Positions 43,863 to 64,000 of a stretch of DNA of 64,000 bases are shown here, piece after piece. The stretch lies in the NCBI GenBank assembly GCA_048013815.1, contig CM106585.1, forward strand, positions 17,670,001 to 17,734,000. The letters run 5' to 3'. The notes below the pieces were generated by a model. It was not told the origin of the DNA and did no database searches. It was given only the letters and a program-made list of their open reading frames with translations. Positions within the stretch are counted from its first letter, which is position 1. Every line of letters begins with the position of its first letter. The translations under genes were made by a program, and so were the position numbers. This DNA is from Setoptus koraiensis. Lineage: Eukaryota; Animalia; Arthropoda.

Positions 43863-44026
43863 GTGAGTATAATTCAGTTTGCTTTTTTCAGTCCCATTAT
43901 GTCAGCCTTGATGTTTTTTGTTGTTGTTGGTGCCTGTAAAAACATCAAGCGAGATATACTAATGACAAACAAATCGCTAATAATTAACTCAAATCAATCG
44001 TCAAACATTTATTTATTTTATGCCAG

Positions 44027-44206
44027 TTATTGAATGCGGCCCGCCGGAAGTCAACGGAGGATCTCAGTTGGTGGGCAGCAGCGCGTTCACCATCCACTCG
44101 ACGGTGGAGTATCAGTGCCAGAAGGGATTCAAACAAGTGGCGGGCGACCCGTCCAGAACCTGCCAGCCGGACGGTCGCTGGTCCGGCCAGCCGTTATCGT
44201 GCAAAT
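44027..44206 (+). CDS. fw: furrowed-like exon: one Sushi domain
   Basis: gccAG acceptor at 44026; LIECGPP...VEYQCQKGF...RTCQPDGRWSGQPLSCK; donor T|GTGAGT at 44207. Confidence 0.9.
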
Positions 44207-44354
44207 GTGAGTACCCATTCGCTTGCTGTTGTTAGCCGGTGCCAACTAATTAATTAATTAGTTGATGGCAGTTGCCGCTAGTTGGCAGTCCAACGATAAA
44301 TCTGACAACTGATTCTAACTCGCGATTCTCATTTGTTTTTCTCTCGCCTCGCCA

Positions 44355-44420
44355 ACACCGACCAACATCGACCGACACCAACCGACATCGACCGACACCA
44401 ACCGACATCGACCGACATCC
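44355..44420. repeat. Intronic 20-bp tandem (ACCGACACCAACCGACATCG)-type
   Basis: Repeated accgac/atcg/acca blocks just upstream of the 44427 acceptor. Confidence 0.75.
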
Positions 44421-44427
44421 AACGTAG

Positions 44428-46971
44428 ACGTCGACTGCGGCCGAGTGCCCGGCATCCTCAAGGGCGAACTGCAGTATCTCAACGGCACCACCTATCTCAA
44501 CAGTCAGGTCTTGTACGAGTGCACCCCGGGCAACAGAATTTCCGGCCACAAGATCAGATTTTGTGGCGCCGATGGCCGTTGGACGGGCGTGTCGCCCAAA
44601 TGCGAGGAGATCCGCTGCGATGCGCCCTCGTTGCCCGAGAACGGAAGCGCCATCTATTTGGGCAACGACCGGTCTCTTGTGGAACAATCGTTTTCTGTTG
44701 GCGTCACAGTGCAATACAATTGTGATTACGGTCACATTGTGCAGGGTCCCTGGGCCAACAGGCAGTGCCAGGCCAACGGCGAGTGGTCGGGCGAGGCGCC
44801 CACCTGTCGCTTTGTTGATTGTGGTCAGCCAACGGCGGTTGAATTCGCTCAGGTGACGCTCAAATATCCGACGGCCAATCAAAATTTGGTCCAAGGCAGT
44901 CGATTGCCCAATTTGAACGACGGCGGCCAGTCTGTTCCGCTCAACAATTATGAATTGATGACCCGGGCCGGGCCGCCCACCTATTACGGTTGCGTTGCTC
45001 ATTACGTTTGCGAGCCCAATTATCGCATGTCGGGCATGGGCATCGGCAGCACAAGCCAGCGCGAGTGCCTCGAGTCGGGACAATGGCGCAAACCGGCCCC
45101 AACTTGCGAGCCCGTACAATGTCCCAAACCGGATATACTGGACGAGCACACCCTGGTGGAGATCCAATTGGTTAGCGCCATCAACAATAACACCATCACT
45201 ACAGGCAATCATGTTGCAGCAAGCAATGTGCAGCAGCAGCAACAGCAGCAGAGGGCGCTGCTGGCTAGCACCCAGTTTGGTGTTCAGGACAAAATCAGCT
45301 ACAGTTGTGCCCTGGGGTACGAGCTGTACGGCGGGCCCGAGGTGCGCACTTGCACACATCACGGTCAGTGGAGCGGCTCATCGACGCCCCGCTGCAGACT
45401 GATCGATTGCGGCCGACCGCCGGCCATCAATCCCGAAACGGGTCGCTACTATCTGCTGAACGACACAACAACCTTCAATTCGCTAGTTGAATACACCTGT
45501 ATCAGGCCGTTTAAATTGATTGAGCGCAGCACAACAAGTGGCATATCGCGCCAAGACACTGACCTGTCGTCACAAGCTCCGTTTGGTGCCAACGGCAACA
45601 GCATGCCCATAGCGTTCGGCCTGAAGATTTGCAGTCAAACGGGCCAATGGTGGCCGAGTGACCTGGTGCCCAAGTGTGTCGGCTCGGATCTGAGCGAGTT
45701 CAACGGCGGCGACAACGCCGTCGACACCAGCAACAGAAACAATCAGCAAGTTCTGGCGCCCAACATGGCGCAGGATATTATCAACACAATTGGCGGAAGT
45801 AGTTTCAGGACAAACGCCAACGGGGGCGCTCACAGTCATCACAATCATCAGTCGATGTTGTGGCCGAATCTCATAATTGGCTTCGGTTTGTTTGTCATGC
45901 TCATACTAATTGTGGCCACATTGATTTGCATAAAAACAAAGAGGGCGCACAGTAGCAATCGCTCTCATCCGTCGTCGTCGTCGTCGCTGTCATCGGGCGC
46001 AATCACAAACAATCACGGCCAGCATCATATAAGCGCCGTCATGTCCAATGGTCAAAATCATATCACCGCTGGTCACCAGGCCAACGGTGTGTTGAGTCAC
46101 ATACTAAATGGTGCCACAAACGGTGTCGCGGCAAACAATCATCAACAGCAGCAATCGGGCAAGGGCATAATTGATGTGAGCCAGCATTACATTAATCAAC
46201 AAATGATGGGCACAATCCATTCAAATCATCACATGTATCACCATTTATTGGGCACTACCGGAAGTGGTGGCGTTGCAGGAGTCGGGCTAACCAACGGTGC
46301 TGGCTCTGTGGTGGGTTTGAGTGATCACAGTCTGCATTATGCCTCTAGTCCGGCTTTGCTCGGCATGGCTGGACACAATCATTTAACGGGACACAATGGA
46401 ACTGGGCAACAAATGCACGAATTGCCGCCAAATATGCGATTGCCAATTAGTGGACAAGCTCTCATGAATGCGCTAAGTAACCAAGCCGGCGGTGGCGGCT
46501 CGCAATTGGGTACGCCAGGCTCAAATTCTTCTTCGGCCGTATCCATGGCGACAGCCAGCACCGGAAGTGTTGGTGCCGACGATCAACAGCAGCAGCAACA
46601 ACAGCTGAGATCAAATAGAGCATCGGCAATGATGACATACTCTCGTTTGAGTATTGAATCAGATGGCGCCACTAACAATAGTGGCTCTATTAATAATAAC
46701 AATGGTCAGCCATTGAATACGGCCCACTCAATAAGGCACAATCCCAATGGGCTAATTACGTTTGTTTCGCCTGCCCAACAACAGCAACACCAGCAACCAT
46801 CTAATAATAACAAGCAACCTGCAATATCTGCCAATGTCAATCAAATATCGCCCCATTCGGCGCAGACGTCACTATCGATCTCATCGGCCTCATCGCCGGC
46901 CTCCTCTTCCGCTTCCTCATCGTCTTCTAATCATCAACAACGTGTTGCATCTAATCAACAGCAGCAGCAGC

Positions 46972-47006
<35 letters not shown>

Positions 47007-47282
47007 AGAGAACGCAGTCTGTCCAATCGATTGTCCACTAACTCAATGTTGGCCGCAGCAACAGCTTCCGGTCAGCTACAGATCAGCAGAAGTCAATTTC
47101 AGGCGCCCAGGCCGCCATCAGAGGGATCGCCACAACCTCCTAGCTTGCCAGCGCATCCACCACCCCCGCATAGACTGCATCATCATCAGCAACAGCTAAT
47201 GAAGCAACAGGGCCAGAGACAACAGGCAACTATCAATCAATCTAGTCAACAGCAACACCATTACATGGAACCAAATGTATAG
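44428..47282 (+). CDS. fw: furrowed-like last exon: five Sushi domains, TM helix, long N/Q/H/S-rich cytoplasmic tail
   Basis: cgtAG acceptor at 44427 gives YVDCGRVP. Five CCP repeats, TM LIIGFGLFVMLILIVATLICI (~45870-45932) followed by KTKR, stop TAG at 47280-47282. Confidence 0.92.
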
Positions 47283-47833: not shown

Positions 47834-48151
47834 GATACTGATATTGATAAATATGTTGATATCAAGACAATTTTACGTGTTCTCCCGTCCCCAGGCCTCA
47901 TTTCTTTTCCGGCTTTCAGGCTTCAATCTTTAACGCTTTGTTTTATTGGGTCGACTGTAGGATTGGTGTTGCTTGACTTGAGATCGCCCTTCTAACAAAT
48001 ACATCTAACTTGTGAGGATACAGGCATCTCCGAGCTAACAATCTAAGTTACACTTGTAACCTGACAACTTGTGAGTGACGTTTAATGTTAGGTGTTAAAT
48101 CTGTTGTCCGAGAACTGGGTTGTTGTAGCGAACTGGGCGTAGTTTCGATCT

Positions 48152-48266
48152 GGGTATTTTGGGTATTTTTGGGTAGAGTATAGTACCCTGATACCCGAAT
48201 AGGTATTCATAAGATGTAGAAATTTACGGTTTTCGAGTTACCTGAGGTACCGCACAGTGGGCGTTT
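48152..48266 (+). repeat. Partial third copy of the module left-end sequence (GGGTATTTTGGG...CAGTGGGCGTTT), cut by the gap
   Basis: Aligns colinearly with 62025-62139 and, more loosely, with ~50050-50170. Confidence 0.85.
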
Positions 48267-48766
48267 NNNNNNNNNNNNNNNNNNNNNNNNNNNNNNNNNN
48301 NNNNNNNNNNNNNNNNNNNNNNNNNNNNNNNNNNNNNNNNNNNNNNNNNNNNNNNNNNNNNNNNNNNNNNNNNNNNNNNNNNNNNNNNNNNNNNNNNNNN
48401 NNNNNNNNNNNNNNNNNNNNNNNNNNNNNNNNNNNNNNNNNNNNNNNNNNNNNNNNNNNNNNNNNNNNNNNNNNNNNNNNNNNNNNNNNNNNNNNNNNNN
48501 NNNNNNNNNNNNNNNNNNNNNNNNNNNNNNNNNNNNNNNNNNNNNNNNNNNNNNNNNNNNNNNNNNNNNNNNNNNNNNNNNNNNNNNNNNNNNNNNNNNN
48601 NNNNNNNNNNNNNNNNNNNNNNNNNNNNNNNNNNNNNNNNNNNNNNNNNNNNNNNNNNNNNNNNNNNNNNNNNNNNNNNNNNNNNNNNNNNNNNNNNNNN
48701 NNNNNNNNNNNNNNNNNNNNNNNNNNNNNNNNNNNNNNNNNNNNNNNNNNNNNNNNNNNNNNNNNN
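48267..48766. other. Assembly gap (500 N)
   Basis: Run of N. Confidence 1.
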
Positions 48767-48780: not shown

Positions 48781-49083
48781 ATGAACGGAGAAGACTTTCA
48801 AGGTAACACGACCAAGAGTGCACGAAAGTCACTAAAAACAAAAGCTGTTAAAACTGGACTTGGTCCAAGGAAAACTTCATCATCACTCGGTGTAAAATCT
48901 ACGCAGGAAACGAAAGGATTGGGCCCAAAATCTTTTAAAAGCCTTGCCGGCAAGAAGTCTGTCAAGAGTATCGTCGCCCCGAAATCTGTTAATAGCATCG
49001 TCGGCGCGATATCTGTTAATAGCATCATCGACCCGAAATCTGTCAAGAGCATCGTCGCCCCGAAATCTGTTAGAAGCCGATAA
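48781..49083 (+). CDS. Small Lys/Ser-rich basic protein with an ARKS motif and 9-aa repeats (KSVKSIVAP); histone-tail/H1-like; frame is open into the gap
   Basis: TTKSARKSLKTKAVK...; 27-bp tandem units at ~48957-49070; no stop between the gap and ATG 48781. Confidence 0.55.
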   Translation: MNGEDFQGNTTKSARKSLKTKAVKTGLGPRKTSSSLGVKSTQETKGLGPKSFKSLAGKKSVKSIVAPKSVNSIVGAISVNSIIDPKSVKSIVAPKSVRSR

Positions 49084-49457
49084 ATGATTATTTTCTCACT
49101 GTCAAAATAGGTCGAAATAGACGAGCCAAAACGCTGCTAAAACTGTGCCTCTCTATCGTTATCGTAGTGTGTATGTTGAATACAGTAGTACAATAGTGTG
49201 TCAATTGTGACAAATTATTGTTTACAACATTTACGACTGCAACTCTATAGAATATCTCGAAATTGATTATCAAAACTCATTCGACTCCAAAGTCGAGTAG
49301 GTGTTACAATCACCCGCGTTTCAAACATACTTTATATTTGTGTCTTAACGTTTTGTATGCATGGCTAGGTTAGAATAAAAAGTCTATAATGCAAAGTATA
49401 ATTATCATTGGAGCATTTTTTTGTGGTTAATTCAATCTCAATTAACGATTCAGTCAG

Positions 49458-49715
49458 TTAATTTTTGCAGATATGCAAAACGACCGATGATTGGTTGATC
49501 AGAAGTCTCTTTCTTGCATCTGCACTGGTTGTGAACGTTCCATCAAAATTACCAATCACGAGATTTTATCCGGAATTATACACTGTCAAGAGTATCGTTT
49601 CATTTCTATCTGGGACATCCGTTTCCAATTTTCTTTCCTCATTCAATTTTTGATAAACATTCTTATTGGGCAATACTGGTGACGATTTCGTGCTGTTGAG
49701 TTCATGCTTATTCAT
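49458..49715 (-). pseudogene. 85-codon frame with one internal TAA; C-terminal half resembles a NUMOD1/IENR1 helix-turn-helix
   Basis: My translation: MNKHELNS...ETILLTVYNSG*NLVIGNFDGTFTTSADARKRLLINQSSVVLHICKN; internal stop at 49566-49568. Confidence 0.3.
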
Positions 49716-50007
49716 TGGTATTATGGAGGGTATTCCGTCTTACGAACAAAGAACGAGCGAAACAAACAATGGACCTGGCAGATTTAGATTGTTGCGTCGT
49801 CTATTGTTTGTCCATGGCCACTTGTTCTATGTGCGATCGGCTAGAACAATCAATTATTTTTTTTTATATAAATAGGGCAATATGAATAGCATATTCTTTA
49901 CAAGAATATGCTATTTATATTGCCCCAATTTCTCTATGGCTTCTATAATGGCTTCTCAGGAGGAACTGTCTACAGTCCCATGACGCTGATTGGGTACAAT
50001 ATATTCT

Positions 50008-50995
50008 GGGGCTTCTCCGAAAAGACGACACACCACAATTTGAGTATTTCGGGTATTTATGGGTAGGGTATGGTGCCTTGATACCGGAATGGGTATTCCG
50101 GAAGTGCGGAAATTTCCCGTACCCGAGATACCCGAGATACCGCATACTGGGTATTTTAGGGTATTTGAGGGCATATTGACAGTACAGTCGGCCGTACTCA
50201 CCCGCACGGACATCGGGTAGGGTACTAAGGTCTTCGCATCGGTGGTAGATTGTACCTAGAAGCTAAAGCAAGAAAATAAAAGTGATCAAACTGAAGAGGC
50301 GTGACCAATGCGCACGGCACGAATTGAAACCGCGCATAATCAATTTAAGGATATATCCCCAATGTATATATCCCCCCATGTAACACCCCAGGCGAAGCCT
50401 GACGTCCTAGCCTCGACCAGGACTCCTACTAATAAAGGTTCAGGGCCAGGGTTCAAGGCAGTACAATAGCCCTTCCGTCTGCCATGCATCTTGGGCCCGG
50501 GCCGGAGAAGGGGTTCGGCCTCCAGTCGTCCACGCCTACGGCCTGCGGCCTCCGGCGGGACGACTGACGGCCACCTAACTGAAAAAGATTCTTCCCGTGG
50601 ACTGGGAGTCGAATGGGCGGGGCCCGTGATCGGATTTCTTCTATATAGGGTGTGAATTTGCTTCAGAGACCGTAACTAGTTGGTAGTACAGCCGAATAAC
50701 ATCAGTTTTAAAACCGGAAGTGTGACTTGCATATATTGTAGAATATCTCGCGAACGAGTTGATGTAGAAGATTTATCTAAACGCTATCACATAGATAGCA
50801 TGTGGATCTAGACAATCATACAAAAATTGAAGGTCTGAGGCCCCTCTGAGGCCCGAAAAATGCATTTTTCTATAACTCCGGAAGTAGAAATTTCCGCACT
50901 TCCGGACCACTTTATTTGTTCTTTGGGGCCCCTTCGGAGCCCATATGTGAAGTTTGAAGGAAATCGGAGTGTGTCGTCTTTTCGGAGAACACCCC
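50008..50995. mobile_element. Module 1: ~1-kb non-coding unit with nested inverted repeats (MITE- or HINE-like)
   Basis: Perfect 21-bp IR 50013-50033/50969-50989, perfect 20-bp inner IR 50097-50116/50887-50906, GC-rich hairpin core 50390-50572. No TSD identified. Confidence 0.7.
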
Positions 50996-51491
50996 AAACT
51001 TGTAGGACTATCATGTCCCAAAGCTAAATTAGCTCTCTTTTGCATAGATTGGTGTCACTCTAGGCATTGATCTGTGTCAATAGCATGCTTGACAAGTTAG
51101 TTTAGCATATTATACAAGCACTGGATGACATTCAAACATAATTATCACTCTTGAAGTGATACAAATGATCAATTAAGCCGGTCATCTGTCAATGGCAAGT
51201 TAATCAGAAGCACCTATTGGTAAAATTTGACTATTGACCAGCTTAATTTGCCGCCAATACTCATAGACTGATGTTCATGATTGACATTGTTGACTTTATT
51301 GAACTGATTCAATTGAACCTTGTTGTGTATACAGTTCTAAATAGTAATGTTGCACAAAATTTTGCGCCAGTTTTTCGCTCATGCTCGTGTGCAAACTTGA
51401 TGGACTATCATGTCCCAAAGCTAAATTAGCTCTCTTTTGCATAGATTGGTGTCAATCTAGGATTGATCTGTGTCAATAGCATGCTTGACAA
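50995..51491 (+). repeat. 397-bp satellite, ~1.25 units
   Basis: GGACTATCATGTCC at 51005 and 51402 (spacing 397); same unit as 54113-55412. Confidence 0.95.
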
Positions 51492-51650
51492 TAGGAATTT
51501 ACTGATGATGATCTGAATGAATTAGGACAGTCATGTCTCTGTTGGGAAACGGTCAAGGCTGAGATCTGTTTGGTTTTTATTTTATTCATATATCTTTGAT
51601 ATAGTGGTAACAGAAATGAGATTATAATCCTCATAATAGCAGATATATCG

Positions 51651-52244
51651 TCAGAATCGGAGATCCGGTAAATCACTCATACTAATTACTTTTGCGGCCC
51701 ATTTTGAATACTTGTCGATCGGTGCTGGTGTAGGAACACTACCTCCATCACTGTTCATCGTGTTCGCCAAGATGTCGATATCTATTATTTCTCGACTATT
51801 ATTGGGAAGCAGTTTAAATCGCTCGAATCCGAAATTATCAGCAAGTTTCCAATATGCTTTCTTTTTATATGGAGCATCCATGACTCGAAGAGGCGTCTTA
51901 TGGATGTCAAGTTGGAAGAAAAGTAATAGGACTAGCATATGAGCGGTTGCCGACGCTTTTTCGTCAGTGCTCCCAATCCCTGTCACGTTGCATCCCTCTC
52001 CTATGCCTTCGAAAATGAATTGAAGACGCCTGCCTACGAACCCCTTATCTGCGAATTCTCGCACCGTCAATCCTAATCCTCGACTTAAATAGTCTATCGT
52101 TTCCTTTGGAGTTCTCCTATCTTCAGGCCTACCGGTGACCTGTACTCTTGGCCATCTGTCTCCAGTATTTCTATCCATGATCTCCAGTCGGCGACTTCCG
52201 AAGAAATTTTCATCTGCTGGTGGAAGAGCTGCGTCGTCAGTCAT
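51651..52244 (-). CDS. 197-aa protein with a putative divergent double-stranded-RNA-binding domain (dsRBD)
   Basis: aa45-110 TPKETIDYLSRGLGL-TVREF-RLQFIFE-VTGIGSTDEKASATAHMLVLLL follows the alpha-beta-beta-beta-alpha dsRBD pattern (P..L..., G.G.sk..A...Aa..l..L). It lacks the KKxAK RNA-contact lysines. Confidence 0.45.
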   Translation of the reverse strand: MTDDAALPPADENFFGSRRLEIMDRNTGDRWPRVQVTGRPEDRRTPKETIDYLSRGLGLTVREFADKGFVGRRLQFIFEGIGEGCNVTGIGSTDEKASATAHMLVLLLFFQLDIHKTPLRVMDAPYKKKAYWKLADNFGFERFKLLPNNSREIIDIDILANTMNSDGGSVPTPAPIDKYSKWAAKVISMSDLPDLRF

Positions 52245-52338
52245 TATTACTTTTTTTATGGAGAAGTTTTATTTTATTAGCGCTTAATTTTAATTAAGGG
52301 CTTATGATGTAGTGTTGTTGGATCCTATAAATCACGCA

Positions 52339-52533
52339 TGAATATCCACGCACGGTATGATGGTGGATACTTAATTCTTGCATTTCATAGGATATTCACC
52401 AATTGTGCTATGGTGATTCACGCGCTGTGTGCTTGTGAATACTCCGACTTTGTATGCCAGTGAATATCCACGTACCGATTTATTTGTGGATATTCACAGT
52501 TTTCGATCTTGAGAGTCACGCGCTGTGTGCTTG
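52339..52533. repeat. Array of GTGAATATCCAC/GTGGATATTCAC motifs upstream of the dsRBD-like ORF, including a perfect 12-bp stem
   Basis: Stem 52460-52471/52486-52497 with a 14-nt loop; further partial copies; CACGCGCTGTGTGCTTG occurs twice. Confidence 0.8.
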
Positions 52534-52828
52534 CATACATTAGCACTAGCATAATCAGTGCTTAGTGAGTGTGTAGGCAGGAATGTGCTTGGGAGGTGGG
52601 AGGTGGGAGGTACACTCAAGCTTGAGATTCAAAAGTTCGTCCACCTCCCAAATACACATTTACTAGGGAGGTGGATTGAATCTTGAGTCTCGGGCTCATG
52701 TCTAGTTAGGAGGTGGACCGAAGCTATAACGAGAATTGAATTTTAAGTCCAGAGCTCATGCAGAGGTTGATGTATTGTGAGGAGGTGGATCGATGCTATA
52801 CACGATCTGTGCAAGTCTTATCAATTTT

Positions 52829-53095
52829 CTGTTTCTAGTATTGGCGCTATAGGCCATATTGTGGCACATGTGCCCATACATTATGTGCGATTTTCGAAAC
52901 TGTTCTGTTTCTAGTATTGGCGCTATAGGCAATTCTGGATCATGTTAGCTCATTCAATACATGTGATTTCTGATCACATGTGCCCATACATTATGTGCAA
53001 TTTTCGAAACTGTTCTGTTTCTAGTATTGGCGATATAGGCCATTTTGTGGCACATGTTCTTCCACAGTATGTTCAATTTTCGAAACTGTTCTCAC
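52829..53095. repeat. 76-bp minisatellite, 3 units (second has a 34-bp insert)
   Basis: CTGTTTCTAGTATTGGCG starts at 52829, 52905 and 53015. Confidence 0.85.
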
Positions 53096-53491
53096 CAGGA
53101 TAAATTCTTGAAAAACTTTCTAGAGACAGCTAGCACTTATCACTTCTTAATAAACTGTCCAAACCTCTAAGATTGTTCACTGGAAAAATTAAGCGCTCTT
53201 ATACTGGTATAATCAGTATAACTTGTTCTATATTTTTTCTATTTTATTTTATTTTACTTTATTTGTTTAGTGAGTGGGTTACAAAGGCAGTTATCGATAC
53301 ATATATGTGATTTGGTAACAGTTGTATGCGTATTAGACATTTTTCCGTTTGAGCATGAGAATAGCAACGTGACAAATTGGCTGTGAATTACAATTACACC
53401 GTTTAATTGTATCTCTTTCTATTTCTAGATTTTGGGGGAAGGGACAATGTTTCTGGTGAAACAAAAGGGTTTACCCCCCACTGCTCGGGAA

Positions 53492-53795
53492 GGACAGTAT
53501 TGTCCACAAAACTTCTACTTAGTGATTTGAAAATCGCGCCCATCTTCAAGTATTTACGGCGGTCCTAAGGACAGTGCTGTCCCAGATCATTCCGGTGATA
53601 ATTTATCGGCTCCGTCCACTCTCACGAGGACAGTCTTGTCCCAACAGACGAAGTTGAGGTAGTTTGAGTGGGACGGTTCTGTCCAGAAACATTCTAGCTC
53701 TTTTTTGGCGAGGCATATTGATTAATGTAAATAATATAATTGATAGTAATTCTGCTTATATATAATATCTGATTCATGCCGGGATACGGTTGTCC
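53492..53795. promoter_or_regulatory. Cluster of GGAC-N6-GTCC palindromes separated by unique spacers
   Basis: Exact sites at 53492, 53569, 53628, 53672; one-mismatch site at 53782. Function inferred only. Confidence 0.6.
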
Positions 53796-54112
53796 AACTT
53801 AAACTATCTAACTTTTTTCTAGAATAACTTCTGATCCCCACGGTAGGGGGCGCTCAAACTTTTCTTTCGAAGAATATGAGTCAAAGGTAATCTGTTGGCG
53901 TATATATTCAGTGATAATGATAATAAAGAGACTTATTCTGGATGATATGATGGTGGTGCTGACGATGAAGCGAATGATCGAACTTTTTCATCTCGCTTGT
54001 TTAATGATTTGGGACATGCATGTCCCGTCCATGACGCCATGCATTGCAAAGCGCCATTGAGGTAAGATAATTCGTGGATTGTTCCCGCTCCTTTGTTACG
54101 CCCTCTCATGAA

Positions 54113-55412
54113 GTCACTCTAGGCATTGATCTGTGTCAATAGCATGCTTGACAAGTTAGTTTAGCATATTATACAAGCACTGGATGACATTCAAACATAA
54201 TCATCACTCTTGAAGTGATACAAATGATCAATTAAGCCGGTCATCTGTCAATGGCAAGTTAATCAGAAGCACCTATTGGTAAAATTTGACTATTGACCAG
54301 CTTAATTTGCCGCCAATACTCATAGACTGATGTTCATGATTGACATTGTTGACTTTATTGAACTGATTCAATTGAACCTTGTTGTGTATACAGTTCTAAA
54401 TAGTAATGTTGCACAAAATTTTGCGCCAGTTTTTCGCTCATGCTCGTGTGCAAACTTGTAGGACTATCATGTCCCAAAGCTAAATTAGCTCTCTTTTGCA
54501 TAGATTGGTGTCACTCTAGGCATTGATCTGTGTCAATAGCATGCTTGACAAGTTAGTTTAGCATATTATACAAGCACTGGATGACATTCAAACATAATTA
54601 TCACTCTTGAAGTGATACAAATGATCAATTAAGCCGGTCATCTGTCAATGGCAAGTTAATCAGAAGCACCTATTGGTGAAAAAATACAATTGACCAGCTT
54701 AATTTGCCGCCAATACTCATAGACTGATGTTCATGATTGACATTGTTGACTTTATTGAACTGATTCAATTGAACCTTGTTGTGTATACAGTTCTAAATAG
54801 TAATGTTGCACAAAATTTTGCGCCAGTTTTTCGCTCATGCTCGTGTGCAAACTTGATGGACTATCATGTCCCAAAGCTAAATAAGCTCTCTTTTGCATAG
54901 ATTGGTGTCACTCTAGGCATTGATCTGTGTCAATAGCATGCTTGACAAGTTAGTTTAGCATATTATACAAGCACTGGATGACATTCAAACATAATTATCA
55001 CTCTTGAAGTGATACAAATGATCAATTAAGCCGGTCATCTGTCAATGGCAAGTCAATCAGAAGCACCTATTGGTAAAATTTGACTATTGACCAGCTTAAT
55101 TTGCCGCCAATACTCATAGACTGATGTTCATGATTGACATTGTTGACTTTATTGAACTGATTCAATTGAACCTTGTTGTGTATACAGTTCTAAATAGTAA
55201 TGTTGCACAAAATTTTGCGCCAGTTTTTCGCTCATGCTCGTGTGCAAACTTGTAGGACTAACATGTCCCAAAGCTAAATTAGCTCTCTTTTGCATAGATT
55301 GGTGTCACTCTAGGCATTGATCTGTGTCAATAGCATGCTTGACAAGTTAGTTTAGCATATTATACAAGCACTGGATGACATTCAAACATAATTATCACTC
55401 TTGAAGTGATAC
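54113..55412 (+). repeat. 397-bp satellite, ~3.3 near-identical units
   Basis: GGAC-N6-GTCC anchors at 54461, 54858 and 55255. Confidence 0.97.
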
Positions 55413-56612
55413 TTTCCGATCCAACAAGGATCCGGTATCCAACAAACCACCAGGTATATCTTCCTTGATTTCATAGACTTCTTTGTCCTGGAATTTTTCC
55501 ACTATTTTCCTCACGGATCTTTCGAATTTCTTTTTTAATATACAAAATTTTTCAGCCTTTTCTTGACAATCAATAGGGCATAATTCGGTACACTCATTTC
55601 CACACTCGGTGATCCGAGCAATATATTTTTCGATATCATTTATGAACGATAGATTCCCTTCAAATGGCTCGAAGAATTGTGGGGCGCCGAGATTTGTTAT
55701 ATCGATCGGACATCTCAGAAGACTGTTGAGAGTATCAATTTGATTGGTATGGTTGGATCCTGAGTTACAATAAACAATCAGTGTCTGGTCATTTGCCTCT
55801 GAGGGAGGATCTACGTCCATATTCGTCCCTTCGTTTGGACAAGACTGTCCTGAAGAATTGACGTCTGAACAATGTGAGCTAGGATCTGTGGGACCAGTTT
55901 GTCCTACGCCATCCTGTGACGGATGATCTCTGTAATTAGATTTATCTTGAGATGTTCCTTGTGTATCCTCATTTTGCTGCAACGGATGATCGACGTCTGA
56001 ACAATGTGAGCTTTCATCTGTGGGACCAGTTTGTCCTGCGCCATCCTGTGACGGATGATCTATGTAATTAGATTTATCTCGAGATGTTCCTTGTGTATCC
56101 TCATTTTGCTGCAACGGATGATCGACGTCTGAACAATGTGAGCTTTCATCTGTGGGACCAGTTTGTCCTGCGCCATCCTGTGACGGATGATCTATGTAAT
56201 TAGATTTATCTCGAGATGTTCCTTGTGTATCCTCATTTTGCTGCAACGGATGATCGACGTCTGAACAATGTGAGCTAGGATCTGTGGGACCAGTTTGTTC
56301 TACGACATCCTTAGTGGTTAAACGCTTTAATTGATCGAGAAAAGTTGCCATCATCGCATGTGCTTCTTCTATGGGGCCTGTACAATCATCATCCGGTTTT
56401 GGTGGTTCATACGGACGTATACTTCTTTCAGAATAAGTTAGCTCCTTATGCCTCTCTGAAATAATCTTGTTTTTAGAGTCGAAATTAAACAATTTCACTG
56501 AATAAACTATACGACCGTTACGTGAAATTTTTCCGTTGATGATTCCCGGCCAATATCCTTTAGCTGATCGCACCATAACTGGCCTATCTTTTTCTAAATA
56601 ATCGAGGCTCAT
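55395..56612 (-). CDS. 405-aa protein: N-terminal PWWP-like domain, 44-aa acidic repeats, Cys-containing C-terminal region; native C-terminus replaced by satellite-derived sequence
   Basis: From MSLDY: PVMVRSAKGYWPGII...YSVKLFN...SIRPYE...IEEAHAM matches the PWWP layout (VWaK..gypwWPa.I, y.V.FFg, l.pf, helix). The stop codon lies inside the satellite. Confidence 0.6.
   Translation of the reverse strand: MSLDYLEKDRPVMVRSAKGYWPGIINGKISRNGRIVYSVKLFNFDSKNKIISERHKELTYSERSIRPYEPPKPDDDCTGPIEEAHAMMATFLDQLKRLTTKDVVEQTGPTDPSSHCSDVDHPLQQNEDTQGTSRDKSNYIDHPSQDGAGQTGPTDESSHCSDVDHPLQQNEDTQGTSRDKSNYIDHPSQDGAGQTGPTDESSHCSDVDHPLQQNEDTQGTSQDKSNYRDHPSQDGVGQTGPTDPSSHCSDVNSSGQSCPNEGTNMDVDPPSEANDQTLIVYCNSGSNHTNQIDTLNSLLRCPIDITNLGAPQFFEPFEGNLSFINDIEKYIARITECGNECTELCPIDCQEKAEKFCILKKKFERSVRKIVEKFQDKEVYEIKEDIPGGLLDTGSLLDRKVSLQE
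55861..56300 (-). repeat. 132-bp (44-aa) coding tandem repeat, ~3.3 units
   Basis: GQTGPTD(E/P)SSHCSDVDHPLQQNEDTQGTS(R/Q)DKSNY(I/R)DHPSQDG(A/V); each unit carries a GGAC-N6-GTCC site (55891, 56023, 56155; 56287 has one mismatch). Confidence 0.95.
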
Positions 56613-56761
56613 TTTAAAAAATGAATAAATAAATAAATTTATGTTGATAATAAGAAACAATAGCGATAGTGTTACAAGCATACAGCATGCAGCATCTAAT
56701 CAGTTGAGATTGCTGTGTAATTCGCGCCCTTTATTTGAAAAAAAAGAAGGACCTTATGGTT

Positions 56762-56864
56762 CTTGCGACGGTTAACCTTTTGAGAGTCAATCGTTGCTGG
56801 GACTCGGTGGTCCTTGCGACGGTTAACCTTTTGAGAGTCAATCGTTGCTGGGACTAATTGGTCC
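56762..56864. repeat. 51-bp tandem duplication between divergent ORFs; each unit is a hairpin plus a GGAC-N6-GTCC site
   Basis: GCGACGGTTAACCTTTTGAGAGTCAATCGTTGC twice; sites at 56800 and 56851. Confidence 0.9.
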
Positions 56865-56970
56865 TACATACAATAGCAGACGAAAAATACACATTCCGTC
56901 ATTTGCGTGAGTGCGTAACTGCGTTATCTCTTATTATTCTTTTTTCTTTACATCTTTTACGAATAGCACA

Positions 56971-58064
56971 ATGGCAAACAAAGAGAACAAAGAAAACAAA
57001 CAAAAAAAACCCAGAACCTACATTAGAAATCCGTATGTTTCTGATGTAAAATTCTCTGTTCCAGTTCCAAATAAAAATATAACCCATTTAATCATTTTTG
57101 GTATCATCCTGCGATCAATTGGTACAAACAAGTAAGCCAAGAGTTGTGTGAAGACTACAATTGTCACATCTATCTAAATAGTGAAAATGGTCTCGGATCT
57201 GATATCATAGCCTGTATTTTTTTGTACGGTCAGTATGATTGCTGTCGGAAGAAGTCACAACAACAACCCAAATTTATTGGAAGAACAATACTTCAAGCCT
57301 TTTATTTGATGAGTGGCTCAGCAAATACTCATTGTTTTGGGGTCAATCAAAGAGAATACCTCAAATACAAAATACCACCAAGTTCCGATCAAACATTATC
57401 AGACATCCCATGGGAAGTCATTAGGACTCATTCCGATAACGAACGACCCGACAAAAACCATCATGAGAATAAGTTTTGTTTCGGGTCCGCCGACTATAAC
57501 TACTTCGATTTGAACGAAGATTTGAACGACTCAGAGACTAGCGCAATGGATAGTGAATTTGACATCTCAATCTATAAAAATCCTTGGATCGGTGATGGGG
57601 AGCCGCCGGATATTGTGGCTTTCCACCAATATAAAATAACTCATAAAGAATTACATCTTTTATCATCAAATGAATGTCTCAATGATATGATCATTGATTC
57701 CTATTTCCACCTCATTCAACAGACTAGGATGCAGGACAACAAAAGCGTGGATATACTTGTATCACCGACTACGTTCTGGCGAAAATTAGATCGACTCAAA
57801 TCCGACGAGGAAATTCAAGAGCTCACAAAGACAAATTATATTGGGGACGAATCCTTTCAGCTCTACCACCGTGTGTTCATCCCGATCATATTATCCGACA
57901 TGAAGCATTGGATTTTGGCTGTCGTGGATACGGAGAATCGTATTGTCACATTGTATGATAGCTCGAAAAGTGGCAGAAAGGACATTCTATCCAAGATCCA
58001 AACATATATAACAATGGATGCCAAACAACGACGAATTCTTTCACATCAGTGGCAATTGATGTGA
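56971..58064 (+). pseudogene. Ulp1/SENP (peptidase C48) SUMO-protease-like gene; frameshifted near 57075 and truncated before the catalytic Cys
   Basis: ITHKELHLLSSNECLNDMIIDSYFHLI, SPTTFW, VFIPII...KHWILAVVD...IVTLYDS (His at 57906, Asp at 57957), ending ...QWQLM* at the inversion junction with no QxNxxDCG. The ATG 56971 frame needs one extra A in the A5 run at 57073-57077 to join the 57075+ frame. Confidence 0.8.
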
Positions 58065-58411
58065 CAATACGATTCTCCGTATCCACGACAGCCAAAATCC
58101 AATGCTTCATGTCGGATAATATGATCGGGATGAACACACGGTGGTAGAGCTGAAAGGATTCGTCCCCAATATAATTTGTCTTTGTGAGCTCTTGAATTTC
58201 CTCGTCGGATTTGAGTCGATCTAATTTTCGCCAGAACGTAGTCGGTGATACAAGTATATCCACGCTTTTGTTGTCCTGCATCCTAGTCTGTTGAATGAGG
58301 TGGAAATAGGAATCAATGATCATATCATTGAGACATTCATTTGATGATAAAAGATGTAATTCTTTATGAGTTATTTTATATTGGTGGAAAGCCACAATAT
58401 CCGGCGGCTCC
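58059..58411 (-). repeat. Inverted copy of 57599-57951 (Ulp1 core)
   Basis: 353-bp reverse-complement match, no differences noticed; 107-bp spacer at 57952-58058. Confidence 0.95.
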
Positions 58412-59186
58412 AGGACAAACTGGTCCCACAGATGAAAGCTCACATTGTTCAGACGTCGATCATCCGTTGCAGCAAAATGAGGATACACAAGGAACATCTC
58501 GAGATAAATCTAATTACATAGATCATCCGTCACAGGATGGCGCAGGACAAACTGGTCCCACAGATGAAAGCTCACATTGTTCAGACGTCGATCATCCGTT
58601 GCAGCAAAATGAGGATACACAAGGAACATCTCAAGATAAATCTAATTACAGAGATCATCCGTCACAGGATGGCGTAGGACAAACTGGTCCCACAGATCCT
58701 AGCTCACATTGTTCAGACGTCAATTCTTCAGGACAGTCTTGTCCAAACGAAGGGACGAATATGGACGTAGATCCTCCCTCAGAGGCAAATGACCAGACAC
58801 TGATTGTTTATTGTAACTCAGGATCCAACCATACCAATCAAATTGATACTCTCAACAGTCTTCTGAGATGTCCGATCGATATAACAAATCTCGGCGCCCC
58901 ACAATTCTTCGAGCCATTTGAAGGGAATCTATCGTTCATAAATGATATCGAAAAATATATTGCTCGGATCACCGAGTGTGGAAATGAGTGTACCGAATTA
59001 TGCCCTATTGATTGTCAAGAAAAGGCTGAAAAATTTTGTATATTAAAAAAGAAATTCGAAAGATCCGTGAGGAAAATAGTGGAAAAATTCCAGGACAAAG
59101 AAGTCTATGAAATCAAGGAAGATATACCTGGTGGTTTGTTGGATACTTTTGACAAATTCAGAACATGTTGGGAACTGAGAAGATAA
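58411..59186 (+). pseudogene. Inverted, 5'-truncated copy of the PWWP-like gene (58411-59146 = reverse complement of 55435-56170) that keeps the probable native C-terminus ...LLDTFDKFRTCWELRR*
   Basis: Identical translated repeats and C-terminal region; PWWP part missing. Confidence 0.9.
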
Positions 59187-59227
59187 ATAAAAATTGAGTA
59201 TCATCCTTCCGCATTTAATCGTTGCAG

Positions 59228-59368
59228 GGACCAAGTGGTCCTGAGAATTCTACCAAGACAAGTCGAGAAAAACTAGGTAGTTATTTGTCCTAGACATCTT
59301 AGGACAGACTAGTCCTCAGTTATCTGTTGAGACTATCTAGTCCTCCAGAATCTGAGACGGATTAGTCC
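59228..59368. promoter_or_regulatory. Second cluster of GGAC-N6-GTCC palindromes
   Basis: Exact sites at 59228 and 59302; AGAC-N6-GTCC variants at 59330 and 59355. Confidence 0.55.
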
Positions 59369-59384
59369 TCAATTTAGCTAAGAG

Positions 59385-59638
59385 ATGCCTAGAGAAACAC
59401 CAGATGTTCATATTTTTGATAACATGATCCAAATTATCCGGAGTAGCCTGATTCATAAAAAATGATGGGAGTGCATATACTTTTTTTTTGCGCGTTTGGT
59501 TATCATGAATAGATAAAAATTAATTATCTCGTCGTTTAGCCATCCTGCGGGTTTGAGTCTTCTGATGTCTCTCACTGTGACTTGATAGTTTAGAACTTTT
59601 CGATGAGGACCGGCTGGGACTTCTTTGTCCCTGATCAA
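59385..59638 (-). pseudogene. Fragment of a SENP1-like Ulp1 domain (N-terminal part), frameshifted in an A9 run and truncated
   Basis: YQVTVRDIRRLKPAGWLNDEIINFYLFMI closely matches the SENP motif ITRKDIQTL..LNWLNDEIINFY. After a -1 shift at 59481-59489 it continues KVYALPSFFM...VIKNMNIW, then no catalytic residues. Confidence 0.75.
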
Positions 59639-59731
59639 ATTCCTTGAATATCGGTTTCAGATGATAAAAGGAGAATGATTCTTCAGATATTTTATCGCCA
59701 TATATAATTGGTGCAGCGTAGGGTGCTGTTG

Positions 59732-60463
59732 TTAGGCCATTAAAAATGCGTCTAAACAAGAATGAGTACAGGTTTCTTCTGCATTCTTTGAGCCTTTCAT
59801 GATATGACAAAATGTCAAAGAGTTCAACATTGGAACTCCATACATCTCCTCAAGCCACAAAGCTATGATTGATGCTTCTTCAGTTGTTATAGTCATGTCG
59901 CTATGACATGAGTAAACGGTTGCAATAGTTATGTTTGTGGACTGAACTAGAATCAATATAAAATGTCCTCTCATTTCGATCGGATGTATGTTTCCTGACC
60001 CGAGGAGTGGAAAAAATTTTCCGCTTTCCGTTGTTTCCGCTCCAATCTTCAGCGATCGAGAGAGTTTCGGGAAATATGATGCATCTCCCTCATTTTTGCC
60101 GAATTTTTCATTCAACTTTTCCCTCAGTGCTCCTATAAATCCATAGAAGTCTTGATCGGCAAGGCAACTTTTTGGGTAATTAGGCTCAAAAAAGCCCTTC
60201 TTCTTAAATTGTTCTTGCTGAACGAACACATGCGGTTCATTATGAGCCGCGTATGTGCCCTTTCCTCTTATGAGAGATTCTTCGTCGGTTTTTTTCTCGT
60301 TTATAATGATTGTCTCATCATTGGCATTTAATGTTAAATAATTAATGAACATAAAATAGAGGCGAAAAAATTTAAAATGATCCCCCATATAGGGGTTGAT
60401 ATCGTATTTTTCTTCTGCCATGGTATTATTTCTCAGTCGATATCGACTCTCTATGACAGTCAA
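59732..60463 (-). CDS. 243-aa ORF with a highly divergent C48/Ulp1-like (possibly inactive) protease fold
   Basis: IHPIEMRGHFILILVQSTNITIATVYSC resembles Ulp1 PI....HW.L.vvd......I..yDS. The catalytic Asp is not evident and the Cys segment is ambiguous between two frames. Same frame as 59453-59638. Confidence 0.45.
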   Translation of the reverse strand: MTVIESRYRLRNNTMAEEKYDINPYMGDHFKFFRLYFMFINYLTLNANDETIIINEKKTDEESLIRGKGTYAAHNEPHVFVQQEQFKKKGFFEPNYPKSCLADQDFYGFIGALREKLNEKFGKNEGDASYFPKLSRSLKIGAETTESGKFFPLLGSGNIHPIEMRGHFILILVQSTNITIATVYSCHSDMTITTEEASIIALWLEEMYGVPMLNSLTFCHIMKGSKNAEETCTHSCLDAFLMA

Positions 60464-60562
60464 TCGTAATATAACAGCTCAAAACTACTTTCCGCAATCA
60501 ATTTCTGAGGATCTAGATCAAGAGAGCTCGTGAACAGTATCTCTCTCTCCTTATCTCTCTTT

Positions 60563-60590
60563 ACTCGCTAGTTCAGGTGAACTAGCGAGT
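60563..60590. promoter_or_regulatory. Perfect 12-bp hairpin in the divergent intergenic region
   Basis: ACTCGCTAGTTC-AGGT-GAACTAGCGAGT; a GGAC-N6-GTCC site follows at 60671. Confidence 0.55.
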
Positions 60591-60904
60591 CAGCCGACGT
60601 TGTTCAGATCAGATGAACTGACACATAATGAGTGCCGTGCGCGAGGGGACTCTCTAGTTTTTTTTGATCAGGACACAGTAGTCCGCTAATGTGAAATTAT
60701 CTTGTTTTTTTTATTACATTATACGAGTATGGTCCTGTGTTGACGTTAGATATAGTTGTTCTTTATACATGTCGGTTGATCCGATCCTGAGTCGTACATC
60801 AATTAAGTACAATTAAGTTTCGCATTAGTCATCTTAGGCAATAACGAGAGTTAGAAAAAACACTACATTGTTACATTCACTATACCCAATCATATACAAA
60901 AGGA

Positions 60905-61732
60905 ATGGCGAGAACTAAAGACACCAGAGATAAAAATCTACGCAAGAGTGTAGGGAGTACGAGAATAGCCGACCGCACTTTGGGGGCTGCAAAATCAACT
61001 CCAGATGCGCCTCCCGCGGCCGCAAGAAGTACATCTAATACATCCATCATGCATGTTCAAGCCCAAGAGTCTGACCCCAAGACTCCAGGAAGTTCAAAAT
61101 CGAAAACTTCACAAGCTGTTACCGCAGGCACGGATGATCCGTCGAAGAGATCACGATCGCAACAGACCGTGCCTTATATTTTACAAATTGGAACTATATT
61201 TCTAGACACTTTGATGTCCCAGATGAACAAAATTCACCAGTATCATTGTGCTGAACAATTGGCGGGATGCAAGAGACAAGTTCTGTTCGGTAGTACAGAA
61301 GGCTGGTTTACGAAACCATCCCAAGAGCTTTGCCGACAATTCAGTTGTCATGTCTTCTTGGTATCAGAGTCCACACTAGCTGATGACATAGTCTTGGTTG
61401 CCCTATTTTATGGTAGCAAAACTATTGGTCGTTTTAACGATGTGAAATTGATTAAGGATCTGGACCATGTTATTTCACAAAAGTTCGTAATTTTCACACG
61501 GTCTACGTCAGTGAGGAAATTAGGCGACAAATTCATGCGAGAGATAGCAAATAAGATTCCATTTGGCTCACAACAGAACCCCGAAAGTCTATATGGTAGA
61601 TTCGTCCGGCCTATGATATATGCATCCAAGACATCAAATCAGCCCACTAGGAATAAAACAATGGCAGAAATGTTCGCACGTATCGAGACCAAGACTGAGA
61701 AGAGTCAAAGAAAAAAGTCCGTCCAAGAATGA
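60905..61732 (+). CDS. 275-aa protein with a histone H3-like N-terminal tail but no histone fold, plus an unassigned ~90-aa domain shared with the 57-kb Ulp1 protein
   Basis: MARTKDTRDKNLRKS...GAAKSTP: R2, T3, K4, T6 and K9 in register with H3; intact ATG-to-TGA ORF. Confidence 0.75.
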   Translation: MARTKDTRDKNLRKSVGSTRIADRTLGAAKSTPDAPPAAARSTSNTSIMHVQAQESDPKTPGSSKSKTSQAVTAGTDDPSKRSRSQQTVPYILQIGTIFLDTLMSQMNKIHQYHCAEQLAGCKRQVLFGSTEGWFTKPSQELCRQFSCHVFLVSESTLADDIVLVALFYGSKTIGRFNDVKLIKDLDHVISQKFVIFTRSTSVRKLGDKFMREIANKIPFGSQQNPESLYGRFVRPMIYASKTSNQPTRNKTMAEMFARIETKTEKSQRKKSVQE

Positions 61733-61975
61733 CAGGGATGAAGCGGAACGCGCAGAGGACAAGTAGGTCCCTGATCAATAATGCTCAAATTCCATACAAT
61801 ATGTTACAATTCTAATAAATATTCAATGAGAATTTATTGATAGATGAAACTGATAATCTTCTTCACTCTCTACTGGTGATTCATGAAACGATCGCTATTC
61901 GCCATCTATGATTCTAGCATCAGTAACAATTCTTTGAGCACCAAGATAACAGTGTGCCCATAGGATTGCTATTCA

Positions 61976-62970
61976 CCACGAAAAAGTTTTGGTTATAGTC
62001 CCGAAGAGCGCCACACTTTTTTCGGGGTATTTTGGGTATTTTTGGGTAGGGTATTGTACCCTGATACCGCGATGCGTATTCCGGAAGTGCGGAAATTCTT
62101 CGTTCCCGAGATAACCGAGGTACCGCTCAGTGGGCGTTTCACGGTACCCGACAGCCGCTTGGAGATTTGCGGGTAGTTTTTCGGGGAAATTTTTGGTACC
62201 TCATCAAGGTCGCATCCAATACAGCAAGGAATGGCAGAAATAGGCCTCAGCTTCGCTCAGCTTGTGATGGGTCTGAGAACTCGGCCTGCGGCCTCGTAAT
62301 CTGGAGGCCGTCACATCTCCGTCGTCGCTCCCGCGACGACTCCGTGCGACGGGAACCCTTCGGGTAGGGTTGATGAGCGCTTCGGGTATCGGGCTGCGCC
62401 CTCTACCCTCCGCTCACGTGACTGCAATCCATACCCTGTTAAAAGAGATGATCAGACTGCGAACTGTGAAGCCCAAGATTTCACAGCATCCCATCGAATG
62501 CGCAGGCTTCAGATTTAACAGTTCATTAATCAGCGTAATTCCGACCGATTGCGCAAGTATTGCTTCTGTCAGGTCGTCTGATGACGGCATTCCACTGAAC
62601 AAAGACCCGTTCGCTGAACTCGCTAAGATCATGCGCATAGAATAGCAAGCAAGAGGTGAAAACCAACAAAAACGGCCCTTATCAGGGCAACCCCACTTTT
62701 AACAACTTTCTCTTGGTTTTTCCCAGAGATCTCGAGAACCGCGCGTCCAACATGGCTGAAATTGATGGCGTTGTGCTCAGCATGCTTGAATCTACCAGTG
62801 TACCGAGTTTTGAGTCTGTATCTCAGAGTTTTATTAAAACCGGAACCGGAAGTTTCCGCACTTCCGGACCACTCAATTTGTACCAAGGGGGCCCTACGGA
62901 CCCTATGTGTGAAGTTTCATCTCAATAGAAGTGTGGCGCTCTTCGGGACTACACCCAAAGTTTTTAGTGG
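61976..62970. mobile_element. Module 2: ~1-kb non-coding unit homologous in architecture to module 1, same orientation
   Basis: Perfect 23-bp IR 61996-62018/62929-62951 (imperfectly extending to 61976/62970), 16-bp inner IR 62080-62095/62853-62868, GC-rich hairpin core 62240-62410. Confidence 0.7.
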
Positions 62971-63165
62971 ATAAGGTGATGAGCCATCCAATAGATCCGG
63001 CGAGGATCTATTCATGGTTGTTTATATATATGTTAAATTATATGTTAAAAGATATTTCTAATAGATATTTCTCTATATTTTGGCTGGATGGGTAAAATAT
63101 GGCATTCGACTTTCTTTTGTGGTGCTACTATCAGATAAACATCCGAGTCTGGCTCTACATCAACA

Positions 63166-64000
63166 ATTTAACTTTGAGACATGTTAGTCCTACAAGTTTG
63201 CACACGAGCATGAGCGAAAAACTGGCGCAAAATTTTGTGCAACATTACTATTTAGAACTGTATACACAACAAGGTTCAATTGAATCAGTTCAATAAAGTC
63301 AACAATGTCAATCATGAACATCAGTCTATGAGTATTGGCGGCAAATTAAGCTGGTCAATAGTCAAATTTTACCAATAGGTGCTTCTGATTAACTTGCCAT
63401 TGACAGATGACCGGCTTAATTGATCATTTGTATCACTTCAAGAGTGATAATTATGTTTGAATGTCATCCAGTGCTTGTATAATATGCTAAACTAACTTGT
63501 CAAGCATGCTATTGACACAGATCAATGCCTAGAGTGACACCAATCTATGCAAAAGAGAGCTAATTTAGCTTTGGGACATGATAGTCCATCAAGTTTGCAC
63601 ACGAGCATGAGCGAAAAACTGGCGCAAAATTTTGTGCAACATTACTATTCAGAACTGTATACACAACAAGGTCCAATTGAATCAGTTCAATAAAGTCAAC
63701 AATGTCAATCATGAACATCAGTCTATGAGTATTGGCGGCAAATTAAGCTGGTCAATAGTCAAATTTTACCAATAGGTGCTTCTGATTGACTTGCCATTGA
63801 CAGATGACCGGCTTAATTGATCATTTGTATCACTTCAAGAGTGATAATTATGTTTGAATGTCATCCAGTGCTTGTATAATATGCTAAACTAACTTGTCAA
63901 GCATGCTATTGACACAGATCAATGCATAGAGTGACACCAATCTATGCAAAAGAGAGCTAATTTAGCTTTGGGACATGATAGTCCATCAAGTTTGCACACG
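63166..64000 (-). repeat. 397-bp satellite in reverse orientation, at least 2.1 units, runs off the window
   Basis: Reverse complement of the 54113-55412 unit; anchors at 63177 (AGAC variant), 63574 and 63971. Confidence 0.97.

Follow-up and report, generated by a model that had tools for sequence, protein, structure and literature searches.

Episomal herpesviruses carry tandem units that each contain a palindromic site for a dimeric viral protein, as in the EBNA1 family of repeats and the LANA terminal repeats. In papillomaviruses, the E2 dimer binds ACCN6GGT, and its sites serve transcription, replication, and tethering (PMC8353396, in part). Among mobile DNAs, the foldback transposon Tetris of Drosophila virilis has inverted ends made of ~220-bp tandem repeats and occurs in modular, rearranged forms (PMC4079207, in part), and Ulp1 protease domains are found on the DNA transposon Ginger1 and on some Mutator elements, with the Ulp1 domain of Ginger1 fused to a DDE integrase-like transposase (PMC2836005, in part). 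Here we analyze a 64-kb stretch of Setoptus koraiensis DNA (assembly GCA_048013815.1, contig CM106585.1, positions 17,670,001 to 17,734,000 of the forward strand), which we call the window. From position 50995 onward, the window consists of element-type DNA comprising a 397-bp satellite, five long intronless open reading frames (ORFs A to E), and nested repeats. This element carries many copies of a gapped palindrome, GGAC-N6-GTCC, which we tentatively regard as the recognition site of a dedicated dimeric protein.

The initial annotation of the window had listed 27 exact GGAC-N6-GTCC sites, and a search with the pattern GGACNNNNNNGTCC recovered all of them, with a single slip in position (53672 should read 53671): there are 27 exact matches in the 64-kb window, every one within 51005-63984. 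As a null, we generated 100 dinucleotide-preserving shuffles of the whole window, which contained a mean of 0.37 and a maximum of 2 matches, such that the observed 27 was reached in none of them. The spacer length is equally strict, as spacers of 0-15 other than 6 give 0-2 matches each across the window and, beyond 49 kb, a single one (N11). In an unbiased scan of all 4-mers paired with their reverse complements at spacers of 0-12, GGAC-6-GTCC ranks first, and the runners-up, two pairs with 14 matches each, are produced by the 397-bp repeat. Half-sites are concentrated in pairs: the element contains 49 GGAC and 55 GTCC, 27 of the 49 GGAC belong to paired sites, and once the 27 pairs are subtracted the density of unpaired half-sites resembles that of the first 48 kb, with no enrichment. 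The window has 14 one-mismatch sites, of which 10 are past 49 kb and the first 48 kb account for 4; the six named in the initial annotation are all real, and those at 49613, 55475, 56749, and 59093 are additional. Within the window, host DNA lacks the exact motif: no site occurs in the first 48,266 bases, and the three nested repeats of the host, which are high-copy and total 2,986 bp, are likewise free of it.

Because 12 of the 27 exact sites are repeat or duplicate copies, we assembled a non-redundant set by keeping one unit each of the 397-, 132-, and 51-bp repeats and leaving out the exact inverted duplicate at 58059-59146 and the three nested repeats. The remaining 7,476 bp contain 15 exact sites compared to 0.042 expected (first-order Markov; Poisson 1.6e-33), and a relaxed form of the word occurs 19 times compared to 0.25 expected. 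These 15 sites carry 14 different spacers, which agrees with the initial estimate of about 15 independent sites and indicates that the spacer sequence is free. Nor do they look like decayed copies of one ancestral repeat: across 30-bp flanks on each side of 14 non-redundant sites, mean identity is 17.35/60, compared to 17.57 ± 0.42 at random positions, and 213 of 300 random controls reach the observed mean, so that the flanks are not unusually alike. Such several hundred-fold enrichment of one strictly spaced palindrome, in ~7.5 kb of element DNA that is unrelated in other respects, is a clear signal of protein-DNA recognition.

The actual word is wider than first read. Every GAC-N6-GTC in the element (33 of 33) has a purine before it and a pyrimidine after it (27 G/C, 4 A/C, and 2 G/T), whereas such flanks occur in none of the 7 GAC-N6-GTC found in host DNA; the word is thus RGAC-N6-GTCY. 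The first spacer position is also biased, being A in 17 and G in 1 of 30 symmetrized counts from the 15 non-redundant sites. Because of this preference and the purine/pyrimidine rule, the full word is about RGGAC(A)-N4-(T)GTCCY. Watson-Crick pairing of the positions adjoining the half-sites would be possible in just 3 of the 15 sites, and G-T pairing in another 4; it is therefore the sequence that is kept, and not a hairpin or longer stem. Together, the purine/pyrimidine rule, the unrelated flanks, and the non-complementary neighbors point to sequence recognition rather than to a hairpin or a decayed repeat. A few sites have short extra flanks in common, namely GTCC(C)TGATCAA at 59617, 61757, and 60671, and AATCGTTGC[TA]GGGAC at 56800, 56851, and 59228. 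In the first of these groups, a TGATCA palindrome adjoins the site, possibly forming a composite site. Elsewhere, IMG/VR viral contigs often contain three GGAC-N6-GTCC sites spaced within 15-45 bases (more than 126 loci); the match lengths there step by 9 bases (86, 95, 104, 113, 122), which suggests collagen-like Gly-X-Y coding repeats of phages rather than binding sites.

The sites are distributed unevenly with respect to genes. The five long ORFs hold just two of the 15 non-redundant sites, both in ORF A, and the other 13 are found elsewhere, though non-coding sequence makes up only 47% of that DNA (binomial P 0.0018). A further site lies in a broken SENP-like frame. The earlier description of the palindrome as lying across the whole element, including inside ORFs, was therefore overstated, although the tandem repeats of 397, 132, and 51 bp do each amplify one site per unit, as it had claimed. 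The idea that coding sites have a common reading frame fell once the SENP-like frame at 59617 was recognized. Outside the longer repeats, sites are placed as follows:

51525..51538, just 3' of ORF E: a one-mismatch site, GGAC-N6-GTCT
53492..53684, in unique intergenic DNA: a cluster of four sites (53492, 53569, 53628, 53671)
53782 (one mismatch) and 54012 (exact): the sites that follow this cluster
56749..56864, between the divergently oriented ORFs A and B: three sites (56749, with one mismatch, 56800, and 56851) that bound two 51-bp units, 115-245 bp from the start codons
59228..59368: two exact sites (59228, 59302) clustered with two one-mismatch sites, AGAC-N6-GTCC (59330, 59355)
60671..60684, between the divergently oriented ORFs C and D: a single site, 227-256 bp from either start codon
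61757..61770: a single site, 25 bp past the stop codon of ORF D

The pattern is thus confined to the element, biased toward intergenic DNA, and present once per unit of private tandem arrays. Because the spacer is strictly 6 bp with a free sequence, the flanks are symmetric, and no extended stem is present, we propose that RGGAC-N6-GTCCY is the recognition site of a dedicated, two-fold symmetric dimeric DNA-binding protein, probably encoded by intact members of the family; we put the chance of this close to, yet somewhat short of, even. On the sequence evidence, a dimeric protein acting on the control regions and arrays of the element would be the best reading of the sites. The centers of the two half-sites are 10 bp apart, or about one helical turn, which would place them on the same face of the helix where a dimer could read both. 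The intergenic bias suggests a role in gene control, such that the genes of the element might be regulated by protein bound in the divergent gaps (A|B, C|D, and E|53.8 kb) and in the 3' clusters. The single site per 397-bp unit on both inverted satellite arms could in turn create high-avidity platforms for marking of the ends or for tethering. In this broken copy, the candidate readers would be a Cys/His-containing domain common to ORFs B and D, and ORF A. If the reader is encoded by the element, the locus would represent an unclassified eukaryotic element with a regulatory or tethering system of its own, and the motif would provide a handle for finding intact relatives.

To weigh this proposal, the coding content of the element must be considered:

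51654..52244, minus strand: ORF E, 197 amino acids, orphan, no motif site
55398..56612, minus strand: ORF A, 405 amino acids, orphan, with a site at 55837, further sites in its 132-bp coding repeats, and a one-mismatch site at 55475
55857-56311: the 132-bp coding repeats of ORF A, with sites at 55891, 56023, and 56155 and a one-mismatch site at 56287
57075..58058, plus strand: ORF B, with a SENP/Ulp1 (C48) protease domain and an N-terminal domain in common with ORF D, no motif site
59456..59656, minus strand: a second SENP1-like fragment, covering the start of the catalytic domain, with site 59617 inside
59735..60421, minus strand: ORF C, 229 amino acids, orphan, no motif site
60905..61729, plus strand: ORF D, 275 amino acids, no motif site

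The protease assignment of ORF B is based on matches to Pfam PF02902 (Peptidase_C48, E 4.8e-8) and to human SENP1 chains (E 1.4e-5, residues 32-180 of the 238-residue chain). ORF B is broken, ending before the region of the catalytic cysteine at the exact junction of an inverted duplication. In the second SENP1-like fragment (E 2.3e-7 to SENP1 in the PDB), a stop and a change of frame interrupt the coding sequence, as seen in a three-frame reading. These are two separate genes with unrelated N-terminal parts; that of ORF B is related to the C-terminal half of ORF D (E 3e-12). We searched all 68 ORFs of at least 60 amino acids in 48.8-64 kb against Pfam (hereafter the Pfam search), which yielded nothing beyond one ATPase exon and the Peptidase_C48 of ORF B, seen again in the inverted copy of that ORF.

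Several observations weigh against a dedicated, element-encoded dimer. The Pfam search found no known DNA-binding domain, although the initial suggestion of a dimeric-protein site fits the strict spacer length, the symmetric and unrelated flanks, the free spacer sequence, and the intergenic bias. The orphan ORFs have no detectable relatives in the searches made: a search for homologous proteins, covering near-length relatives only, returned none for ORFs B, E, and D; a PDB sequence search returned none for ORFs A, C, D, and E; and no credible related locus was found in viral contigs (ORFs C and E), metagenome contigs (ORFs D and A), or genome contigs (ORF E). The poor AlphaFold models of ORFs A and D, computed without alignments, count on the same side, as that of ORF D was unusable (predicted local distance difference test score, or pLDDT, 37) and that of ORF A was confident only for residues 1-60, which form four strands, with a low-confidence helix at 80-104. 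Furthermore, ORF A does not appear to be visibly constrained, given that the 17 visible substitutions relative to a 7-8% diverged paralogue fall at 5 third, 8 second, and 4 first codon positions, with no third-position excess. Because both SENP-like genes are broken, this copy may be dead and a dedicated factor absent from the genome. Finally, neighboring sites are separated by 77, 59, 43, 51, 51, 74, 28, and 25 bp, in which no helical phasing is seen.

Other leads on these proteins were slight. A single 22-residue match among candidate related loci (E 4e-4) was regarded as chance, and neither Pfam at E values up to 10 on the main ORFs nor PHROGs yielded anything useful. In the ESM Atlas, the matches of ORF C (score 0.89) are unnamed clusters, mostly from giant viruses, with a C48 lead, and ORF D reached 0.75; the first is a weak lead and the second likewise a lead only. 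For ORF A, Foldseek gave no match at E ≤ 0.001, the best being PAS and Pur-alpha domains at about 0.05-0.06, and VIA-align gave a best Z of 5.5 with no fold match, leaving a PWWP/Tudor identity that we had considered without support from either program. The N-terminus of ORF D (window 60905-61040; MARTKDTRDKNLRKS...AAKSTP) resembles, by eye, what we take to be a histone H3 tail, for which the PDB sequence search returned nothing.

The lack of a detected DNA-binding domain among the element's own ORFs, and the fact that its genes are broken yet its sites intact, would also be expected if the sites bind a dimeric factor of the host (e.g., of insulator, BTB-zinc-finger, or nuclear-receptor type) and were accumulated by the element. 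The geometry and intergenic bias are matched equally well by such a factor, and the gypsy retrotransposon, which carries an array of Su(Hw) sites, provides a parallel. A host factor should however have some sites elsewhere in the genome, and none is present in 48 kb of gene-containing host DNA, albeit a small sample, or in the three host repeats; nor were the motif strings found in the literature searched. From the sequence data we therefore consider a host reader a serious alternative that is nonetheless unlikely. If it is correct, the element would be a natural, concentrated array of that factor's sites.

The architecture of the carrier, which is rearranged, is as follows:

50008..50994: a repeat resembling a miniature inverted-repeat transposable element (MITE), with 34-nt inverted ends, nested or adjacent, no motif site
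50995..51491, plus strand: 397-bp satellite, 1.25 units, with sites 51005 and 51402
52301..53199: a very high-copy nested repeat of ~900 bp with 76-bp tandem units and GGAGGTGG boxes, no motif site
54054..55412, plus strand: 397-bp satellite, 3.4 units, the left arm, with sites 54461, 54858, and 55255
58059..59146: an exact inverted duplicate, 100% complementary, with four redundant sites (58413, 58545, 58677, 58731)
61982..62965: a second copy of the MITE-like repeat, with 37-nt inverted ends, nested, no motif site
63165..64000, minus strand: 397-bp satellite, at least 2.1 units, inverted and cut by the window end, with sites 63574 and 63971 and a one-mismatch site at 63177

The inverted arms, 54445-55280 and 63165-64000, consist of 397-bp units and are 98% complementary over 836 nt; the right arm runs off the window, and the left side is interrupted by the MITE-like repeat and a second partial array. 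No termini or target-site duplications are seen, as the right end is past the edge of the window. In the inverted duplicate, 58059-58411 matches 57599-57951, and 58411-59146 matches 55435-56170, each as reverse complement, indicating a deleted, flipped copy that is joined 107 bases past the last unique part of ORF B. The two units of the 51-bp array match over the 37 bases from one site to the next and differ at 4 positions. Each of these positions belongs to a site, and 3 are direct neighbors within the spacer. The MITE-like repeat (~985 bp) has an internal TTCCGGAAGTGCGGAAA box, and a fragment of it is also present at 48118-48266. The repeat at 52301-53199 contains GTGGATATTCAC-type palindromes and shows many internal deletion joints in public contigs.

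Some of these rearrangements are what would be seen if the sites were targets of a recombinase or transposase that cuts within the spacer, with the arrays and rearrangements as joining products, as the initial annotation had raised as a second option. The 51-bp array, with its three sites and differences confined to them, is as expected if a new site were built from two half-sites; one site is only 2 bases away from the deletion junction 56170|57599, which appears at 58411; and the 397-bp inverted arms resemble those of foldback transposons with tandem-repeat ends, such as Tetris as described in part in PMC4079207. Only the 51-bp array looks joined through spacers, however, as neither the ends of the 132- and 397-bp arrays nor the junctions at 55435, 57599, 57951/58059, and 59146 lie in spacers. 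The 14 different spacers among would-be partner sites present a further difficulty, as tyrosine recombinases are not known to tolerate differing spacers between partner sites. The Pfam search found no recombinase, transposase, or integrase family, and the read depth described below is that of about one locus and not of a proliferating transposon. With so little support, we judge recombination at these sites to be improbable.

To estimate copy number, we used the depth of contigs from four public runs (X1, X2, X4, and X5) placed on 48800-56960. The runs probably amount to two data sets, as depths nearly coincide between X1 and X2 and are identical between X4 and X5:

48.8-49.9 kb, single-copy flank: X1/X2 about 160, X4/X5 33.7; ~1.3% different from the window
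51462-52300, unique part including ORF E: X1 43.8, X4/X5 0; identical to the window
53200-53782, unique part: X1 37.4, X4/X5 16.7; 3 differences and 1 gap
56269-56791, unique part: X1 57; identical to the window
51066-51369, exact contig of the 397-bp satellite: X1 263, X4/X5 21.6; ~6.5x unique-part depth
MITE-like repeat: X1/X2 10,000-55,000; no motif site
52.1-53.4 kb repeat: X1/X2 16,000-131,000; no motif site

The unique parts are thus present at about 1/4 to 1/3 of the flank depth (37-57 compared to ~160). Because the depth of the 397-bp satellite fits the at least 6.8 units in the window, this satellite is essentially private to the locus, whereas the MITE-like repeat, at 10,000-55,000 compared to ~160 for single-copy DNA, is present in tens to hundreds of copies. 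The paralogue of the ORF A region, 7-8% diverged, has a depth of 104-145. Given a depth of about one locus and the nested high-copy repeats, the carrier is a low-copy, polymorphic or hemizygous insertion, old enough to be invaded and amounting to no more than about one locus per haploid genome. The depth would also be compatible with a sex-limited or supernumerary chromosome. Motif content and read depth together distinguish the nested host repeats from element DNA. The carrier is a composite, in which low-copy, motif-bearing DNA has been invaded by very high-copy, motif-free host repeats; the term element, as used in the initial annotation, is to be qualified accordingly. The duplicated stretch has a window-identical depth of 74-93, about twice that of the unique parts, and because of this doubling in public reads the inverted duplication is real.

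That doubled depth also bears on the weakest explanation, by which the sites would be functionless by-products of repeat history (a decayed short unit or microhomology duplication) combined with assembly duplication: the share of copies among the sites (12 of 27) and the short flanks common to a few would suit it, and we nonetheless consider it very improbable, as the duplication is no assembly artifact, 15 sites remain where 0.042 are expected, their surroundings are no more alike than random positions, and both the 6-bp spacer and the purine/pyrimidine rule hold strictly.

The DNA surrounding the element is that of an animal genome. The first 48 kb of the window are ordinary animal DNA with large exons for Sushi, F5/8 type C, and BTB domains. 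Exons with Sushi repeats, an F5/8 type C domain, and long glutamine and CAA/CAG runs lie at 36521-47282 on the plus strand, and a BTB-domain ORF lies at 16344-17201 on the minus strand. A scaffold gap of 500 N (48267-48766) separates this gene-rich 48 kb from the repeat-rich 15 kb, and because of it the linkage of the two rests on scaffolding only. In the ~1.1 kb after the gap, an exon-like match to the C-terminal domain of phospholipid-translocating P-type ATPases (P4-ATPases; PF16212, E 1.7e-6) occupies 49657-49872 on the plus strand. The remainder of this domain is not found downstream within the window; possibly the element was inserted into an intron, or the ATPase exon may be a duplicated gene fragment. 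No Rfam family was found in 48.8-64 kb.

Returning to the dedicated dimer, comparison with described systems indicates where the element resembles and where it departs from each. A C48/Ulp1 protease domain on a mobile-looking element, here supported by PF02902 and SENP1 matches, is shared with Ginger1 and Mutator elements, as far as the part of PMC2836005 cited above describes them; unlike Ginger1, this copy has no DDE transposase or integrase in the ORFs covered by the Pfam search, and it has two separate, broken SENP-like genes in place of a fusion. Of the genes of Polintons/Mavericks or adintoviruses, the same search found no protein-primed polymerase, integrase, capsid, or packaging ATPase, and the only protease is of the clan-CE type, C48. 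More broadly, it found no transposase, integrase, recombinase, polymerase, or capsid family, and we cannot place the element in any known superfamily by the features found.

Like the foldback transposons Tetris and FB, the element has long inverted arms of tandem repeats, here of 397 bp, and is modular and rearranged, although its arms enclose orphan and SENP-like ORFs and its read depth corresponds to no more than about one locus per haploid genome; in the part available of the Tetris description (PMC4079207), we see no strictly spaced palindrome that recurs in every unit. The sites also differ from lox and FRT sites, in that 15 non-redundant sites have 14 spacers and no recombinase family accompanies them. 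Compared to EBNA1 and LANA arrays, the DNA here is integrated, with no viral hallmark genes found by the Pfam search and no evidence of an episome. The initial annotation had compared the palindrome with the papillomavirus E2 site, which is the nearest precedent for its geometry and proposed use. The analogy is one of geometry only, in that both, as far as the cited account of E2 sites (PMC8353396, in part) extends, combine short inverted half-sites with a free 6-bp spacer and many sites per carrier. Only the 6-bp spacing is common to the words themselves, the half-sites here being GGAC/GTCC with purine/pyrimidine flanks, and the carrier is chromosomal, arthropod-like animal DNA with nested host repeats and private satellites. 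Among the 68 ORFs of this copy, which is rearranged and cut by the window end, none matched an E2, E1, or capsid family. It is conceivable, though we think it doubtful, that by analogy the locus would be a resident element with its own E2/EBNA1-style system, in which a dedicated dimer and a 16-bp palindrome in every control region and each satellite unit would serve self-regulation and tethering or end recognition without recognizable transposase or viral hallmark genes. Relative to all of these systems, a dense, strictly spaced palindrome on an unclassified element is the new aspect of this locus.

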